From: Sulfurovaceae bacterium
GTDB lineage: Bacteria > Campylobacterota > Campylobacteria > Campylobacterales > Sulfurovaceae
Assembly: GCA_028714675.1 (NCBI GenBank)
Contig: JAQTLV010000005.1
Span: 3,475-67,474 of the forward strand
Reading direction: 5' to 3'
DNA: 64,000 bases
Shown here: piece by piece, positions 1,485 to 60,142 of the stretch
Layout: each line of letters begins with the position of its first letter
How positions within the stretch are numbered: position 1 is the first letter of the stretch
Made by a program: the position numbers and the translations under genes
Notes under the pieces: generated by a model
Told to the model about the DNA's origin: nothing
The model's input: the letters and a program-made list of their open reading frames with translations, nothing else
The model's database searches: none

Positions 1485-2228
1485 TTATCCTTTGGTGGAT
1501 TTTTGGGCAACCAATAGTGTAGATATGCCCATCGAAAATGATTTTGTATATTTTATATCAAAACCACTCTCTTTTAGCTCATCTTCAAGCATTTTTGTTG
1601 TTAAAAAACTCTCAATAGAATCTGGTAAATATCTATAAGCATCATAGTTTTTTGAAACAAGTCCACCAATGGCAGGAAGAATTTTTTTCATATAAAAATC
1701 AACGATTTTAGATATAAAACCACTTTTTTCTTGTTTTGTGAATTCTAAAATTACGACCATTCCGCTTTTCTTTAATACTCTATTAAATTCACTAAAGGCA
1801 CTTTTTCTATCCATAACATTTCTAATTCCATACGATATAGAAACTATCTCACAGCTTGCATCACTTAGCGGCATTGCTTGTGCTTGCCCCTCTATAAACT
1901 CAGCAAATTTGACTTTCTCTTTCGCAACTTCAAGCATTCCGCGCGAAGGATCAATGCCAACAAAACTATCTACTTTTATGCCTTTTTTTTCAGCTCTATC
2001 TTTCCAATAAAGAAGCAAATCGCCTGTACCGCAAGCAACATCTGCAATTTTAGAAATTTTATTAACCCCCAATATCTCAAATGCTTTATCGCAACCTTTC
2101 TTTCTCCATTGCTTATCTATGCCAAAACTCAAAACCCTATTTGCCAAATCATATGTTGGAGCAATATCGTCAAACATTCCAATTATTTTTTTCTGTTTTT
2201 CGTCTTTTGTCATATCTTTTTGCTCCAT
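1485..2228 (-). CDS. ubiE: demethylmenaquinone/ubiquinone methyltransferase
   Basis: 247-aa ORF with FDDIAPTYDLANRVLSFG and the SAM-binding motif DVACGTGDL, as in the UbiE/MenG family. Confidence 0.85.
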   Translation of the reverse strand: MEQKDMTKDEKQKKIIGMFDDIAPTYDLANRVLSFGIDKQWRKKGCDKAFEILGVNKISKIADVACGTGDLLLYWKDRAEKKGIKVDSFVGIDPSRGMLEVAKEKVKFAEFIEGQAQAMPLSDASCEIVSISYGIRNVMDRKSAFSEFNRVLKKSGMVVILEFTKQEKSGFISKIVDFYMKKILPAIGGLVSKNYDAYRYLPDSIESFLTTKMLEDELKESGFDIKYTKSFSMGISTLLVAQKSTKG

Positions 2229-3226
2229 ATTATAATATCCTCTTCCTTTTTATCTATATGTAATGTTTTAAGTCTCAAATCTGTATTGTATGATAACTTG
2301 TTGGCACTTAAAGTTGGTGCTTGATAAACCAAAAGCCAATCAATTTTGTCTCTTAAGGCTTCTAGCATTTCGCCCCCACCTTCAATCATTACAAGTGATG
2401 GAGTGCTTAAAAAATCGAGATTGTCGCCTATCTCAACACTTCTGTTTTCTACATTAAAAAGAGGAATGCTTTTATCTATCATCTTTTCATCTTTTGAATA
2501 TATAAATACATCAGGGGCTTTGCCATCAACTAATCTGCTATCTAGTATCGGTCTATCACTCCTAACTGTTGATCCGCCAATTAAAAGCTTGCTGCAAACA
2601 TTTCTGATGTCATGCATATGAGTTCTTGAAGGAAGTGAACTTATATTTTTGCCGCCTATGCGACCATTTAAACTTTGAGCTAATTTAAAAACAACAAAAG
2701 CACGATTTTGCCAAATAGTAAAAGGCTCAAGAAGTTCTTTGGCTTTGGCTTCTAAAATGCCAAGCTTGACATCAATACCAAGATTGCTAAGATATTCTGC
2801 TCCGCCACTATGCTCCATGATAGGATCTTTACATGCCACATAAACATCAGCTAAATTTAAATCTCCTAAAAGCATTGCACAAGATGGTGTTTTGCCTATA
2901 TGAGAACATGGCTCTAGAGTAACATATATAGAGCATTTTGAAAAAAAATCTTTTGGAAGGCTTCGTAGAAATTCATGTGAAGCAGATGAGTCGTTTTTAT
3001 CAAAACTAACTTTTTTACCACTTTTAGTTTCATAAGCAGAGACAAGAGCTAAAACTTCAGCGTGCGAACTTCCTGCTTTTTTGTGAGCTTCTATACTTAA
3101 AATTTTTCCATCTTCTACGACAACGGCACCTACTGCTGGATTTGGATATGTTAGGAGTTGATTTCCCCATGCCACATCAATGGCAATTTGCATAAAAAAT
3201 TGGTGAGTATTAGAGTCTGTTACCAT
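2210..3226 (-). CDS. ribD: bifunctional riboflavin biosynthesis deaminase/reductase
   Basis: 338-aa ORF with the cytidine-deaminase-type zinc motifs HAEVLAL and PCSHIGKTPSC, followed by a reductase-like C-terminal half. Confidence 0.85.
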   Translation of the reverse strand: MVTDSNTHQFFMQIAIDVAWGNQLLTYPNPAVGAVVVEDGKILSIEAHKKAGSSHAEVLALVSAYETKSGKKVSFDKNDSSASHEFLRSLPKDFFSKCSIYVTLEPCSHIGKTPSCAMLLGDLNLADVYVACKDPIMEHSGGAEYLSNLGIDVKLGILEAKAKELLEPFTIWQNRAFVVFKLAQSLNGRIGGKNISSLPSRTHMHDIRNVCSKLLIGGSTVRSDRPILDSRLVDGKAPDVFIYSKDEKMIDKSIPLFNVENRSVEIGDNLDFLSTPSLVMIEGGGEMLEALRDKIDWLLVYQAPTLSANKLSYNTDLRLKTLHIDKKEEDIIIWSKKI

Positions 3227-3657
3227 TCAAAATATGTACGAGCTTTATTGATTTGTGGATAAGTAAAAGTTTTTGTCTCGCCATCAACCTCTACTGTTAT
3301 CTCTTTTTCATTTGCGTCTTTTAGTAAACCTATGATTTGTCCCACTTCTGTAATTTTTAATTTTACTTTTTCGCCAATTGACTGCATGAAGTGCTTCGGA
3401 TTTATAAGTTTTCTCTCAATTCCTGGTGAGCTTACTTCTAATCTATATTCATTTTCAATAGGGGGATTTACATCTAAAAATGGTGATAATTCGCGTGATA
3501 TGTTAGCACAATCATCAAGATTGATACCACCTTGTTTTGTAATCATAACTCTAAAAATTGTTTCGTCAAATTCACTAACAACTTCTATATCATAAAGAGA
3601 TGCACCAAGACTTTGGACAACTTTTTCTATATTGTCATAAATATCATTTTTCATCAT
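3220..3657 (-). CDS. rimP: ribosome maturation factor RimP
   Basis: 145-aa ORF with an SSPGIERKL motif. It sits directly downstream of rbfA and overlaps it, as in the Campylobacter-type infB-rbfA-rimP cluster. Confidence 0.75.
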   Translation of the reverse strand: MMKNDIYDNIEKVVQSLGASLYDIEVVSEFDETIFRVMITKQGGINLDDCANISRELSPFLDVNPPIENEYRLEVSSPGIERKLINPKHFMQSIGEKVKLKITEVGQIIGLLKDANEKEITVEVDGETKTFTYPQINKARTYFEW

Positions 3658-55393: not shown

Positions 55394-55807
55394 TCATTTT
55401 ATCCGATACCAAGTCTGTTTTCTGCCTATACTAAATGCGCCCCAGCCTATATAGCCTTTGACTATCATTTTATCACCATCTTCTATTAATGTTACTTTAT
55501 ATTCTTTATCATCTTTTGGATCAGTAATCGTTCCACCGCCATATGTTTTAGAGTCTTCTTTTTTTACATTTTTAATTACAATAACACCTACTAAACTTTT
55601 ATTTTTGTATTTACCTTCACAAACACTACAGACTTTTTCTCCAGTCAATACCTTTCGTATAGTTCCACTATAAACTCCAGCATTATTGGTAATAGCAACA
55701 AGTGATTTCTCTTTACCACTTTTTTCATCTACTGTTTTCCAAATTCCTACTATATCCCCAAAAAGCAAACTACACCCAACAAAAAGCAAAAGGGTCATTT
55801 TTTTCAT
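55394..55807 (-). CDS. DUF2147 domain periplasmic protein
   Basis: 137-aa ORF with a signal peptide. GIWKTVDEKSGKEKS...DPKDDKEYKVTL...VKGY.G....GRKQTWYRI matches the DUF2147 pattern. Confidence 0.78.
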   Translation of the reverse strand: MKKMTLLLFVGCSLLFGDIVGIWKTVDEKSGKEKSLVAITNNAGVYSGTIRKVLTGEKVCSVCEGKYKNKSLVGVIVIKNVKKEDSKTYGGGTITDPKDDKEYKVTLIEDGDKMIVKGYIGWGAFSIGRKQTWYRIK

Positions 55808-55834: not shown

Positions 55835-55872
55835 ATTATAGCAGTTTTTTTTGTTTTTATTATAGAGTTTTT
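55835..55872. repeat. left boundary direct repeat (contains the TGcTATAAT promoter of the DUF2147 gene on the minus strand)
   Basis: ATTATAGCAGTTTTTTTTGTTTTTATTATAGAGTTTTT. The 16-nt core ATTATAGCAGTTTTTT and TAGAGTTTTT are shared with 58141-58177. Confidence 0.55.
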
Positions 55873-56025
55873 ACAACAGCCACACGCATCCATTTCATTT
55901 TGAGTCTTTGAGGTATCAAATGTGCCTGTTAACTTACCGCTGTTTGCTTGAACCTAGTCTGTTGTGGTGTTGGTGCGAAAAAATAGTTTACTCATTTTAT
56001 TTGTAGGATTTTACAGTTATCATTG

Positions 56026-56097
56026 TTACCTAACCCCTATGTCTGATTCGCCCAAATACTTTTTCAGTTCTTCGTTAAGTTTATTAATATCTGCCAT
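56026..56097 (-). pseudogene. 23-codon ORF, possible stub of a third cassette
   Basis: MADINKLNEELKKYLGESDIGVR. It is preceded by GAGGTAAAAATGG, the same RBS/start context as the 369-aa gene, 24 nt after the attC-like element. Confidence 0.25.
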
Positions 56098-56121
56098 TTT
56101 TACCTCATTTGAACATCTGTT

Positions 56122-56190
56122 ACATAACGTTTGAGTTGAGAAATATTTGAGCCGCAGGGTCAAATATTTCTCTCCAATGGTTTGTTATGT
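56122..56190 (-). repeat. attC-like imperfect palindrome 2
   Basis: In the gene sense it reads ACATAAC-AAACCATTGGA-GAGAAATATTTGA-CCCTGCGGC-TCAAATATTTCTC-AACTCAAAC-GTTATGT. It has a 13-bp perfect inner stem and 7-bp complementary ends containing AAC and GTT. It starts 2 nt after the stop codon of the 369-aa gene. Confidence 0.6.
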
Positions 56191-56192
56191 GT

Positions 56193-57302
56193 TTAATAGT
56201 CTGCATTTTCAATCATATCTCTATAACTTTGTTCGGCATGAATAAAGTCTTGAAAGTTCTCAATATCATCAAGATATGAAGACACTCTATTAAAAAAATC
56301 ATCTGAAAATGATAACGACAATCCACTTTCTGCATATTTCCATGCAAATTGAGAAGATTCATACTCAAGCCAATTATCTATCTTATCAAATTGCTCGCAC
56401 AACTCTTCATATTTAATATCATCCGTAGGTACAAAATTAAAGTGTGGACTATCTTTAAATTTTGATAGGTTTGCAGGTATCATACCAGCATTATCAAGTT
56501 GAAAATAAAATGGTTCACCATTTTTACTGAACATACCATGAGAAAATGTATTTCTATATTTTTCTTTTATAATATTGATTTCATCGTAAAATAGTTTATT
56601 TTCTTGTATATTTAATGGAAATATGATCTTAAATTTTTCAGAAAAATCTTTTTTATAAAAATCATAAATATTAATTGTTCTATCTGTATTAAAAAATAAA
56701 CAATAAGCTAAAAAATGTTCAAAACGGCTAAAATAAGCTTCTATCATGGAAAAAGTATTATAAAATCCAGTATTGTTTTTTGTCATCATAGTATTTAAAA
56801 AGCTTGACATATCATCTATATTAAAATCAGGTTCTCTTTTGCCATAAATTTTATTTGCTTCTTCTTTGAAATGATAATACATATTTGACAACATATTGAA
56901 ATGATTTGAAATTGTTAAATTACCATATTGCATTTGTTCTTTTGCATAATCTTGTAATATTTTTTTCTCGATATAATTGACAGCTTTATTGATTTTCTTA
57001 ATTATATTTTCATAGTTATCTTTATTCTCAAGATAAAATCTTAATCCAAACTTTTCTAAAGCAACTGCACATTTTGTATTATCATAAGAAAAATACAAAA
57101 TCCAATGCATTTTATCGTATCTGTATCCTAATTTATATTGCATTACTTTGTTTAACAAAAAAAATATAAGCTGTGGAATAGGAAGAGATTCTCTTTCTAC
57201 TTTTACTCTAGTTTCATTTTGATAAATATTTGATTCATCACTATGTGCAAATCCATTTAAAATTTTTTTTATAGCATTAATATGGGTTTCTGATATTTCC
57301 AT
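56193..57302 (-). CDS. hypothetical 369-aa protein with RNxxxH (HEPN-like) motif
   Basis: The ATG at 57302 is preceded by GAAGAGGTAAAA. YRNTFSHG (R250-H255) is encoded at 56538-56555. I recognise no other family. The first 50 codons of the track ORF overlap the upstream gene and the attC-like element and are discounted. Confidence 0.7.
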   Translation of the reverse strand: MEISETHINAIKKILNGFAHSDESNIYQNETRVKVERESLPIPQLIFFLLNKVMQYKLGYRYDKMHWILYFSYDNTKCAVALEKFGLRFYLENKDNYENIIKKINKAVNYIEKKILQDYAKEQMQYGNLTISNHFNMLSNMYYHFKEEANKIYGKREPDFNIDDMSSFLNTMMTKNNTGFYNTFSMIEAYFSRFEHFLAYCLFFNTDRTINIYDFYKKDFSEKFKIIFPLNIQENKLFYDEINIIKEKYRNTFSHGMFSKNGEPFYFQLDNAGMIPANLSKFKDSPHFNFVPTDDIKYEELCEQFDKIDNWLEYESSQFAWKYAESGLSLSFSDDFFNRVSSYLDDIENFQDFIHAEQSYRDMIENADY

Positions 57303-57314
57303 TTTTACCTCTTC

Positions 57315-57388
57315 ACATAACGTTTGAAATGACCAATAAAAAAAACCCGTGGGCGGCTTTTTGATTGGTCTCCTTTGGTTTGCTATAC
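57315..57388 (-). repeat. attC-like imperfect palindrome 1
   Basis: On the plus strand it reads ACATAACGTTTGAaat-GACCAAT-(26-nt partly self-pairing loop)-ATTGGTC-TCCTTTGGTTTGCTATAC. The flanks are conserved with element 2 (13 of 13 on the left, about 15 of 20 on the right). It overlaps the TAG stop of the DUF4145 gene by 1 nt. Confidence 0.55.
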
Positions 57389-58011
57389 TAGGTGTCTCTC
57401 GTAATGATTGCATCTTTTTTGTCGTCAGGTAAAGTATCATATAGAGCGGCAATTTCTTTCGGTTGTGTAATCATTACGTGGGCAATTAGATTGATTAATT
57501 CAAAAAGTTTATGTGCTATTTCTTGATTGTCTTTTAAATCAATTTGTCCTGGATGTACCGCATCATTTCCTACTACTCTTACAATGTCTAAAGCTTTTTG
57601 AATTGTAGGTGGCAGTCCTTTCTGCACTAAACTTGCAATATCGCTATTGATATTTTTTCCACTTTCTCCCAGTTGCTTACACAATTTTTGTATTGCTAAC
57701 CTTAATAAGGCAGCAGCTCCTCTTGGAGACTTATTAACTATGGTGGCAGCTTCTGAATAGTCATTAATGATATCTTGTTCCAAATCAGTATTCGGCGGCT
57801 GAATGCCAGTGGTTTCAGGATATATCATCTTTTCATCTAGCCAAATTGAAAAGTTATTACAATGAGTGCAGAAAGCAATTTTTTCCCTTGGCATATTGCT
57901 ATAGCCTCCACGATAGTAAAATGCATCCGTCCAAATCTGGTGAGAAAATGCATTACAGTATGGGCAATTAAAGCTAGTTTTCTTGAATGCTGGCGGAACT
58001 ATTTTATGCAT
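57388..58011 (-). CDS. Zn-ribbon + DUF4145 domain protein
   Basis: 207 aa from the ATG at 58011, with an N-terminal CPYC-x28-CTHC zinc ribbon. The C-terminal PRGAAALLRLAIQKL...DIVRVVGNDAVHPG matches my memory of the DUF4145 signature (R..GN.A.H). Confidence 0.7.
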   Translation of the reverse strand: MHKIVPPAFKKTSFNCPYCNAFSHQIWTDAFYYRGGYSNMPREKIAFCTHCNNFSIWLDEKMIYPETTGIQPPNTDLEQDIINDYSEAATIVNKSPRGAAALLRLAIQKLCKQLGESGKNINSDIASLVQKGLPPTIQKALDIVRVVGNDAVHPGQIDLKDNQEIAHKLFELINLIAHVMITQPKEIAALYDTLPDDKKDAIITRDT

Positions 58012-58140
58012 ATCTTTTCTTTGAAATTTTAGGGTCAGGTGATGAAAATAAACCACTACTCATAACTTTTCCTTGCTTTTGGACTCACTCCAAGATATCT
58101 TGCTATATCTGCTTGTTTATATCTATCATTTTATGCTTTT

Positions 58141-58177
58141 ATTATAGCAGTTTTTTGGGATTTTGTAGAGTTTTTTT
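58141..58177. repeat. right boundary direct repeat (second copy of the TGcTATAAT box, facing into the island)
   Basis: ATTATAGCAGTTTTTTGGGATTTTGTAGAGTTTTTTT. Confidence 0.55.
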
Positions 58178-58264: not shown

Positions 58265-60142
58265 TTATTCTACCTCTGCGTCGATGACATCGTCATCTTT
58301 TGGAGTGCTTGAGCCTTCAGCAGCAGCACCGCCTTGCTCTTTTGCATAAAGTGCTTCAGCTAATTTATGGCTTTTTTCTGTTAAAGTTTTTACTTTAGCT
58401 TCTATTTCCTCTTTTGTTGCATTGTCATTTTTAAGTGTAGTTTCCAAATCACTTATAGCCTCTTCTATGTTTGCTTTTTCTGTTGCATCAAAATTTTCAC
58501 CAAGTTCACCCATAGATTTTCTAGTTTGATGAATCAAAGCATCTGCTTGATTTTTTATTTCAACCAAAGCTTTTCTTTGCTCATCTTCTGCTTTATGTGC
58601 TTCAGCATCTGCTACCATTTTTGATATTTCTTCATCGCTAAGTCCAGACGAACCAGTGATTTTAATCTCTTGTGATTTACCAGTACCTTTGTCAAGGGCT
58701 GATACTGTCAAGATTCCATTTGCATCTATATCAAATGTAACTTCGATTTGAGGAACTCCTCTAGGAGCTGCTGGAATATCTCTAAGTTCAAACATACCAA
58801 GAGATTTATTGTCTTTTGCAAATTCTCTTTCACCTTGAAGTACATGGATGCTAACTGCTGGTTGATTATCTTCTGCAGTTGAAAATACTTGTGACTTTTT
58901 AGCAGGTATAGTTGTACCTTTTTCTATAATCTTAGTAGTAACTCCACCTAGAGTTTCAATCCCAAGACTAAGTGGTGTAACATCAAGAAGCAATACATCT
59001 TTAACATCACCAGCTAGTACTCCACCTTGAATTGCAGCACCAAGCGCAACAACTTCATCTGGATTTACTGATTTATTGAGATCTTTACCAAAGAATTTTT
59101 TAACTTCTTCTTGAACAAGTGGTACACGAGTTGATCCTCCAACCATTACCACTTCGTTAATATCGCCTTTTTTAACACCTGCATCTTTTAAAACGCTTTC
59201 TATCGTTTTGATTGTATTTGCAACCAAATCAGAAATCAATGATTCAAATTTTGCTCTTGTAACTTTCATAACAAGGTGTTTTGGACCACTTGCATCTGCT
59301 GTGATAAACGGTAAGTTTATCTCTGTTTCAGTTGCACTAGAGAGCTCTTTTTTTGCATTTTCTGCTGCATCTTTTAATCTTTGAAGAGCCATTACATCGC
59401 TTTTTATGTCAACTCCAGTTTCATTTTTAAATTCGCTTGCAACAAAGTCAATAAGTCTATTGTCAAAGTCATCACCACCCAAAAATGCATCACCACCTGT
59501 TGCCATAACCTCTACTACATTATCGCCTGTCTCCAAGGTTGTAACATCAAATGTACCACCACCCAAATCATAAACAACGATTTGCTCTGCATTTTTCTTA
59601 TCCAATCCATAAGAAAGTGCGGCTGATGTTGGTTCATTTATAATACGAAGAACATTAAGACCTGCTATTGTTCCAGCCTCTTTGGTTGCTTTTCTTTGTG
59701 CATCATTAAAATAAGCAGGAACAGTAATAACTGCATCTGTTATCTTCTCTCCAAGATAAGCTTCTGCATCCTCTTTTAGTTTCATTAAAACTTTTGCAGA
59801 AATCTCTTGAGGAGTATAAGTTTTACCAGCAACCTCGATAGCACAAGCTCCATTTCTATCAATAATATGATATGGAAGTCTCGTTTTTGCCTCTTTTGCT
59901 TTTGGCTCATCACACATTAGACCCATAATTCTTTTTATAGAGTATATTGTTTTTTCAGGATTTGTAACTGCTTGTCTTTTTGCAGTATCTCCAACTAAAA
60001 TTTCACCTTTATCTGTAAAAGCAACAACTGATGGAGTTGTATTTTTACCTTCTTTATTTACAATTATTTTTGCTTCACCATGGTCAAATATTGCCATAGC
60101 TGAATTTGTAGTACCTAAGTCTATTCCTAATACTTTTGCCAT
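58265..60142 (-). CDS. dnaK: molecular chaperone DnaK (Hsp70)
   Basis: 625-aa ORF with [17 protein letters not shown] and the other canonical Hsp70 signatures. Confidence 0.98.

Follow-up and report, generated by a model that had tools for sequence, protein, structure and literature searches.

A small integron-derived cassette cluster, very probably a CALIN, beside dnaK in a Sulfurovaceae bacterium

Integrons have been reported in Campylobacterota, and attC clusters without an integron integrase (CALINs) have been described together with their possible origins (PMC8618304). Small CALINs and single cassettes are attributed to insertion at genomic GWT sites, and CALINs of two cassettes form the commonest size class with 1362 out of 2961 (bioRxiv 10.1101/2022.09.11.507474). 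PD-T7-4 is among the most frequent defence systems in the cassettes of chromosomal integrons (bioRxiv 10.1101/2024.07.02.601686). Campylobacterota integrons, CALINs and PD-T7-4 cassettes are all already published, and the observations reported here leave the existing knowledge of integrons unchanged. We analyzed a stretch of 64,000 nucleotides from a Sulfurovaceae bacterium (contig JAQTLV010000005.1, positions 3,475 to 67,474; this whole stretch is called the window in the following), which contains two hairpin-forming sites, A and B, each behind an open reading frame (ORF). It is very likely that both are genuine attC sites forming a CALIN. The array comprises two complete gene cassettes and the stump of a third one, and it is an element of a known kind, not a new system. 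It is regarded as a small CALIN because neither an integrase gene (intI) nor an attI site is present in the window.

The array resembles CALINs as two published accounts summarize them (PMC8618304; bioRxiv 10.1101/2022.09.11.507474): two attC sites of the same orientation lie 1.2 kb apart, each of them follows a promoterless ORF, and no intI is within reach. Nothing essential differs, and the peculiarities of the window are a truncated third cassette, a host promoter that is duplicated at both ends, and one mutated R'' box. The likeness to the sedentary chromosomal integrons (bioRxiv 10.1101/2024.07.02.601686) consists in a single-gene PD-T7-4 system carried as a cassette, whereas in the window this system is part of a two-cassette Sulfurovum remnant and not of a large array with an integrase. 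The integrons of Sulfurimonas, Arcobacter and related Campylobacterota use the same attC family, and one of them (locus L064; the loci compared are numbered with a leading L) contains A-type sites almost identical to site A. An intI gene, a promoter and a conserved core of attI are all present in those integrons, while in the window none of the three components of a complete integron (intI, attI and the cassette promoter Pc) is found beside the array.

The bottom strand of an attC site, which is the plus strand of the window in our case, folds into an imperfect hairpin. The tyrosine recombinase IntI reads the shape of this hairpin, namely the R box, an unpaired spacer, the L box and extrahelical bases, and those extrahelical bases on the L'' side set the choice of the strand. 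The cut made by IntI falls between A and C within the AAC triplet, which corresponds to G|TT on the top strand. A cassette, which therefore extends from TTRRRY to the G of its attC site, can be cut out in circular form or inserted at attI.

All window coordinates refer to the plus strand, and the cassette genes as well as both sites are read in gene sense, i.e. on the minus strand. Site B (57315..57388, minus strand, 74 nt) is located at the 3' end of cassette 1, and site A (56122..56190, minus strand, 69 nt) at the 3' end of cassette 2; both were delineated from sequence, covariance-model matches and fold. Site B shares one nucleotide with the TAG stop codon of an ORF of 207 aa, and 12 nt separate its end from the ATG at 57302. 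Site A begins 2 nt past the TAA of an ORF of 369 aa, and 24 nt lie between its end and an ATG at 56097. In gene sense site B reads GTATAGC-AAACC-AAAGGAGACCAAT...ATTGGTCATT-TCAAAC-GTTATGT and site A reads ACATAAC-AAACC-ATTGGAGAGAAATATTTGA...TCAAATATTTCTCAAC-TCAAAC-GTTATGT, so that both have the layout R''(7) - 5 nt - L''/stem ... stem/L' - 6 nt - R'(7). The crossover point is predicted between G57321 and T57320 in site B and between G56128 and T56127 in site A.

An earlier interpretation made from the letters of this DNA (the sequence-only reading) had already pointed to these two elements and to their identical left flank, and the 13-mer ACATAACGTTTGA indeed has two exact copies in the whole window, at 56122 and 57315. 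The right flanks and the unrelated, self-pairing inner stems were described correctly as well (GAGAAATATTTGA/TCAAATATTTCTC in one site, GACCAAT/ATTGGTC together with A5/T5 and a CCG/CGG stem in the other). Three further details need revision. The unpaired spacers, given as 11 and 9 nt, are better read as 5 and 6 nt. The GGAG beside the stem is partly paired, as GAG/CTC covaries to CAC/GTG among the relatives. The AAC and GTT triplets were ascribed to both sites, which holds for site A and for R' of site B but not for R'' of site B. The boxes of site A, R'' ACATAAC and R' GTTATGT, each depart once from RYYYAAC/GTTRRRY, at the third and fifth position respectively, where a majority of the 183 family sites described below carries A:T.

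Both strands were folded, as the sequence-only reading had suggested, and hairpins are predicted for both sites, a strong one for site A and a modest one for site B. Folded as single-stranded DNA, the gene strand of site A reaches -13.8 kcal/mol (z = -5.6) and its plus strand -16.0 kcal/mol (z = -6.7), and none out of 200 shuffled sequences was as good. The predicted folds of both window sites contain a bulge of 3 nt (TCC) in the 3' arm of the bottom strand; this is not the textbook geometry, and the folds are predictions only. For related sites of the B- and C-type one or two single-base bulges are predicted in that same arm.

Support for the assignment comes from two covariance models. For model R1 we used 30 related sites that all belong to one other subtype, without any sequence of the window and without A- or B-type sites, and the broader model R2 was built from the best 150 R1 hits aligned to the model. 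R1 found exactly two matches in the window, which are site A (51.3 bits, E = 1e-8) and site B (36.6 bits, E = 4.5e-5). With R2 and filters switched off the scores in the 64-kb window were 69.5 bits for site A (E = 5e-13) and 47.6 bits for site B (E = 5.5e-8), and the next match had E = 1.6. We also applied R2 to both strands of 24 kb of class 1 integron DNA (R100 and pSE08-00436-1), again with filters off, and obtained just three matches. Two of them are attC_aadA1, once in each locus (34.3 bits, E = 2e-5), and the third is attC_dfrA1 (21.2 bits, E = 0.023). They are all full length, on the correct strand and directly behind resistance genes.

Compensatory changes have preserved the hairpin across the family. 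In the alignment of the 150 best R1 hits (140 distinct sites) 92.3% of the cells are paired, a figure that is biased in its own favor by the structure-fitted alignment, and changes on both sides occur in 17 out of 23 pairs. Slid alignments led to 24-48% paired cells, and none out of 500 shuffles reached the observed values. A plain MAFFT alignment that mixes the subtypes leaves them out of register, so that RNAalifold recovered only 11 pairs from it; this is mended by alignment to the covariance model.

The likeness to classical attC sites can be followed down to the individual boxes. A 64-nt sequence containing ...AACTCAAGCGTTAGAT matches the aadA1 3' end of plasmid R100 with 100% identity and recurs with at least 99% identity in 1955 plasmid records. 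The sequence-only reading had compared the 3' part of the window elements to the L'-R' end of classical sites, and this comparison is borne out by the aadA1 sequence, which has the same layout: GTCTAAC-AATTC-...-AAC-TCAAGC-GTTAGAT in aadA1 versus ACATAAC-AAACC-...-AAC-TCAAAC-GTTATGT in site A. The window sites agree with attC_aadA1 and attC_dfrA1 in the order and spacing of their parts: the R'' box (RYYYAAC), a spacer of 5 nt, an imperfect palindrome for which a bulge is predicted on the L'' side, AAC, a spacer of 6 nt and the R' box (GTTRRRY). At the 3' end the window sites have AACTCAAACGTTATGT, compared to AACTCAAGCGTTAGAT in aadA1. Differences to the class 1 sites are the AT-richness of the window sites, the third R'' position, which is often A instead of Y, and the bulge, for which 3 nt are predicted (TCC, bottom strand) in contrast to the single extrahelical bases of aadA-type sites. 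As is the case for sedentary chromosomal integrons, the family has a small number of conserved inner-stem subtypes.

Further copies in relatives, for which the sequence-only reading had proposed to search, exist as arrays on other contigs. The attC family forms cassette arrays in contigs of the Sulfurovum, Sulfurimonas and Arcobacter type. A pattern scan with one genome per species led to four real hits, i.e. contigs of metagenome-assembled genomes (MAGs) assigned to Sulfurovum, Sulfurimonas and 'Bacteroidetes' and an unclassified marine biofilm MAG. Three hits in viral contigs lie within coding sequence without palindromes and were therefore rejected as chance matches, and so were L004 and L006, two of the six hits in genome contigs. 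The scan of metagenomes found at least 120 contigs with the family, and a simple finder counted 183 sites over all loci, with few subtypes of the inner stem and conserved ends. A Sulfurovum MAG contig (L007) possesses 11 full sites in 8 kb, each behind a short ORF, and a truncated twelfth site at the contig end. B-type sites nearly identical to site B are present in arrays of Sulfurovum and Sulfurimonas MAGs. The site of the marine biofilm MAG has the inner sequence of site A behind an unrelated gene. L009 3184-3252 and window 56122-56190 are identical in the inner sequence and differ in the R boxes alone, and the genes upstream are unrelated. The same attC behind unrelated genes is the pattern of the homogeneous attC sites in sedentary chromosomal integrons. 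A B-type attC is located at 2499-2570 of a short contig binned as 'Bacteroidetes bacterium' (L005, JANTGP010000305.1, 2659 nt); either the binning is wrong, or a cassette has moved across phyla.

A direct trace of cassette exchange can be sought in the boundaries. As IntI exchanges strands between G and TT of R', a cassette consists of TTRRRY...attC+G, and R'' of a site should therefore complement R' of the site upstream and not its own R'. We counted 44 out of 69 adjacent pairs in which R'' complements the upstream R' at all four variable positions, compared to 11 out of 183 sites (6%) for their own R' and 5.6% for random pairs. In L007 the signature is present in nine out of ten transitions. 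In the window R'' of site A (ACATAAC) is a complement in seven out of seven positions to the GTTATGT that ends site B, which indicates that cassette 2 (57320..56128) is a clean cassette.

Integron integrases accompany this attC family in other contigs. A tblastn search with IntI1 found full-length relatives with 43-44% identity over 316 aa in L045, L064, L076 and L116, and these four intact integrases score 403-415 bits with NCBIfam TIGR02249 (cutoff 265); the integrase gene in L041 is frameshifted. In all five metagenomic contigs (L041, L045, L064, L076 and L116) intI lies next to an array of these attC sites and in divergent orientation to it, which is the classical integron layout. The clusters to which the integrases belong contain members named 'integron integrase' in records of Sulfurimonas sp., Arcobacter sp. 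and Arcobacteraceae. L064 is a complete integron with A-type sites almost identical to site A, and its first cassette starts at G|TTATGT, which is matched by R'' of that cassette. The regions proximal to intI share the core TATATAATGT..GTTGAATAAATAG|TTA (short form TATATAATGT..GTTGAATAAATAGTTA), and this conserved core is taken as the putative attI site with a promoter.

Within the window, tblastn with IntI1 and the four Campylobacterota IntI proteins did not reveal an integrase (best E = 0.47), a search of the 64 kb for intI pseudogenes with the four cognate IntI proteins at E<=50 returned noise only, and the attI core is not present even if up to five mismatches in 28 positions are allowed. 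The window thus contains two attC sites 1193 nt apart and no integrase, as the sequence-only reading had noted. Its proposal that integron attC sites of the CALIN type bound promoterless cassettes is now backed by the arrays next to intI and attI in relatives, by the crossover signature and by the models. Since neither integrase nor attI is found in the 64 kb, the array could move only if IntI from elsewhere acts in trans.

The ORF of cassette 1 (57388..58011, minus strand) encodes 207 aa and is a PD-T7-4 defence gene according to its profile match, with a predicted function in anti-phage defence. Residues 1-207 align to positions 1-208 of the 211 positions of the PADLOC profile PD-T7-4 (PDLC04109, E = 2.1e-90), and Pfam DUF4145 (PF13643) is matched with E = 5.9e-16 and 58.7 bits (cutoff 23.1). 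In L034, L049 and L077, homologues of PD-T7-4 with 48-57% identity are likewise cassettes and are followed by a site of this attC family; in two of these loci they stand directly behind an attI-like core.

Cassette 2 (56128..57320, minus strand, 1193 nt) extends from TTATGT to the G of R' of site A and carries the ORF of 369 aa (56193..57302). The encoded protein belongs to no Pfam or PADLOC family. Homologues (P0001-P0017; loci L010-L017 and L078) with 81-88% identity were found in records of Arcobacter sp. and Sulfurovaceae; in L011-L013 and L078 they stand behind a full attC of the same family, and in L010 the same cassette start TTATGTGAAG is combined with a truncated attC. Genes of a cyclic-oligonucleotide-based anti-phage signaling system (CBASS), an MmeI-type restriction enzyme, a DUF4011 helicase and DUF5677 are neighbors of these homologues, i.e. 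they lie in defence islands, and this recurrent company makes the 369-aa protein a defence-gene candidate. Its AlphaFold (AF2) model is confident (predicted local distance difference test 80.8, predicted template modeling score 0.71), and the comparison of this model to the PDB yielded no significant fold match (best E = 0.33). An exact look-up of both cassette proteins returned nothing on record. The truncated start of a third cassette (56062..56127, minus strand; read from sequence) begins with TTATGTAACAG and possesses a Shine-Dalgarno sequence and the ATG at 56097.

The pair of sites lies in an island of 2.3 kb between dnaK (58265..60142) and a gene for a DUF2147 protein (55394..55807), with genes for GrpE, S15, chorismate mutase and a DUF255 thioredoxin nearby. 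DnaK is 96% identical to that of Sulfurovum sp. enrichment culture clone C5 and 95% to that of Sulfurovum sp. AS07-7, and on this ground the host is assigned to Sulfurovum. The G+C content is 31.6%, and no tRNAs were found in the window. In more distant relatives the spacer between dnaK and the DUF2147 gene is empty and 151 nt long. Counted by hand, the window has 124 nt from the dnaK stop codon to a TGCTATAAT box and 27 nt from a second TGCTATAAT box to the start of the DUF2147 gene, which again adds up to 151 nt.

These boxes are part of an imperfect direct repeat of 35/38 nt that bounds the island. The upstream copy U (58141..58175, minus strand; from local alignment) contains the extended -10 promoter TGCTATAAT facing the cassettes, with the promoter-like arrangement TCTACA-17-TATAAT and a TG, and the downstream copy D (55835..55872, minus strand) is the promoter before the native DUF2147 gene. 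The exact 16-mer AAAAAACTGCTATAAT occurs in both, and their local alignment score of 47 compares to 24.4 +/- 4.1 for shuffled sequences, none out of 500 being as high. A duplication of the whole spacer is not claimed, as the similarity past the 35/38 nt is borderline (18 out of 500 shuffles were as good). The promoterless cassettes would most likely be transcribed from copy U, the duplicated host promoter just upstream, which could act as a surrogate of Pc. Cassette 1 supplies a predicted PD-T7-4 defence gene, and cassette 2 a protein that is found in the company of defence genes.

Both ends of the island contain additional sequence. A fragment of about 25 codons at 58056..58130 (minus strand; read from sequence) has no start codon, ends with ..YKQADIARYLGVSPKARKSYE* just beyond a GTTATGA motif, and in our view resembles a helix-turn-helix of the Xre type; it is probably the scar of an earlier gene or rearrangement. 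At the other end, a tail (55922..56061, minus strand) is the conserved sequence that flanks the variable region on the right. In a blastn search against 147 loci neither the leader nor the tail segment had a match, and the tail was later found in L150 alone, where 3289-3428 aligns to window 56061-55922 and the homology begins at 56061. L150 is the closest relative contig (DnaK 97%), shares both flanks, and has the dnaK terminator in common up to window 58209. In L150 this is followed by approximately 230 nt homologous to the spacer between intI and attI of complete integrons, including the attI core, then by a gene for 367 aa (2199-3302) with a faint match to Peptidase_U49, and then by the tail. 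The last 14 nt of this gene and the following 126 nt are common to the tail of the window island. No intI is present in L150. The Peptidase_U49 family includes the phage-exclusion protease Lit, and the spot downstream of dnaK may be a hotspot for defence genes.

Several points weigh against the interpretation as a CALIN of genuine attC sites. The attC activity of both sites is predicted from sequence, the covariance models R1 and R2 are a surrogate for the curated attC model of IntegronFinder, and the negative result for the integrase covers the 64-kb window. In site B the R'' box is GTATAGC, with AGC being atypical for AAC, and the AAC triplet of R'' is altered in only four out of 183 family sites (site B and three others). 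Such an R'' AGC variant is also listed for L133 alongside site B (57382-57388), and sites of this kind may be decaying or may represent a tolerated variant. The fold of site B is weaker and modest compared to shuffled sequences (-12.3 kcal/mol with z = -2.8 for the gene strand, -10.5 kcal/mol with z = -1.9 for the plus strand). Given the rarity of the altered triplet, site B is probably weakened, and its recombination activity is probably reduced. Cassette 1 does not exhibit the boundary signature: neither attC nor attI is located upstream of it, the upstream site thus being missing, and R'' of site B matches the only R'-like motif upstream in just three out of six bases. Two candidates for its 5' boundary, GCTATAAT in the promoter and GTTATGA (58066..58060), were discarded as poor matches to R'' of site B. 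The sequence-only reading had placed both elements between the end of one gene and the start of the next; the distances to the stop and start codons are correct, but the gene behind site A is a mere stump of 23 codons. This third cassette is fused to unrelated sequence after approximately 12 codons, and the R2 scan of the window found no attC downstream of it. Finally, the direct repeat of 35/38 nt at the ends of the island is not a product of IntI.

The history of the locus could be as follows. The spacer between dnaK and the DUF2147 gene, being empty in distant relatives, would have gained integron-derived DNA in this lineage; the closest relative keeps an attI-like site there, also without intI, and the present arrangement would be a rearranged remnant and not a fresh IntI-mediated insertion. 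IntI makes neither 35-nt repeats nor gene fragments, and other recombination must therefore have contributed. We consider the chances about even that the array is what remains of an integron-derived platform in this place. In this lineage the locus itself is variable and contains DNA of integron origin.

The alternative that fares best is a fresh insertion in trans, by which attC x attG recombination at a genomic GWT site would have created a small CALIN lacking an intI of its own from the outset. According to Loot et al (bioRxiv 10.1101/2022.09.11.507474) IntI inserts cassettes at GWT throughout the genome, and many two-cassette CALINs have been proposed to originate in this way. The position of the array directly behind a host promoter, which would favor its retention, and the lack of an intI pseudogene in the window are in agreement with this view. 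However, an attC is expected at the right junction, where a truncated cassette fused to the tail shared with L150 was found instead, and IntI would create neither the flanking repeat nor the helix-turn-helix-like fragment at the left end. The presence of an attI-like module at the same locus in L150 argues for an older platform rather than a one-off off-target hit. We therefore regard a fresh insertion as unlikely and favor the remnant of a platform.

A much weaker case can be made for the alternative of the sequence-only reading, a different and possibly undescribed cassette system with similar hairpins, which would use a recombinase other than IntI. It could draw on the lack of an integrase in the window, on the R boxes with their frequent A/T at the third and fifth position, and on a TCC bulge of 3 nt where a single extrahelical G would be expected. 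The enzyme adjacent to the arrays is nevertheless a standard integron integrase, approximately 44% identical to IntI1 over 316 aa and above the TIGR02249 cutoff, and the crossover point deduced from the cassette boundaries is the canonical G|TT, which renders such a system very improbable. Least probable of all, and effectively refuted, are hairpins of repetitive extragenic palindromic or terminator type that merely resemble attC and that the sequence-only reading had pictured as scattered behind housekeeping genes, where their role would be to end transcription or to stabilize mRNA: strong hairpins do stand right behind stop codons, and site B has a T8 run within its 3' arm, but the window has only two copies in 64 kb, both in the island and none behind approximately 55 housekeeping genes, a terminator scan flags neither site, an Rfam scan of the island gave no match, relatives possess dense arrays with the crossover signature beside integron integrases, and the family model recognizes canonical attC sites. 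To our knowledge Rfam contains no family for attC sites.

For the annotation of this genome, the CALIN interpretation means that 2.3 kb beside dnaK would be read as horizontally acquired integron DNA with a phage-defence gene, and neither as housekeeping sequence nor as a new class of repeats. Bacteria of the Sulfurovum, Sulfurimonas and Arcobacter type would share one cassette pool with a common attC family, which fits the current view of integrons as stores of defence genes. Two leads arise from this work: the 369-aa protein, which combines a confident predicted fold and the company of defence genes with no known relative, and the attI-like modules without integrase.

The attI-like core was found in 32 copies in approximately 150 loci, e.g. 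at L150 2157-2184, L008 371-398 and L011/L012 8836-8863, among others. Among the 20 cores for which 1.3 kb or more of sequence upstream is available, an integrase is located beside five and none beside the remaining 15. Orphan or cassette-borne attI modules seem to be common in these bacteria. The predominance of cores without an integrase, some of them occurring twice in one array, is a hint towards platforms that are served in trans. The spacer downstream of dnaK might be such a working secondary platform without its own integrase, with cassettes, and in relatives attI-like modules that carry a promoter, being brought in and swapped in trans by an IntI that is encoded elsewhere or comes with incoming DNA, and with expression from the duplicated host promoter, a possibility to which we give little weight. 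If true, the integrons of Campylobacterota would be distributed systems with orphan attI platforms and not one intI-attI platform per array. Two cores on one contig occur in L101 (1762-1789 and 2829-2856) and in L034 (362-389 and 3972-3999), and the second core of L034 is located approximately 225 nt past an attC.

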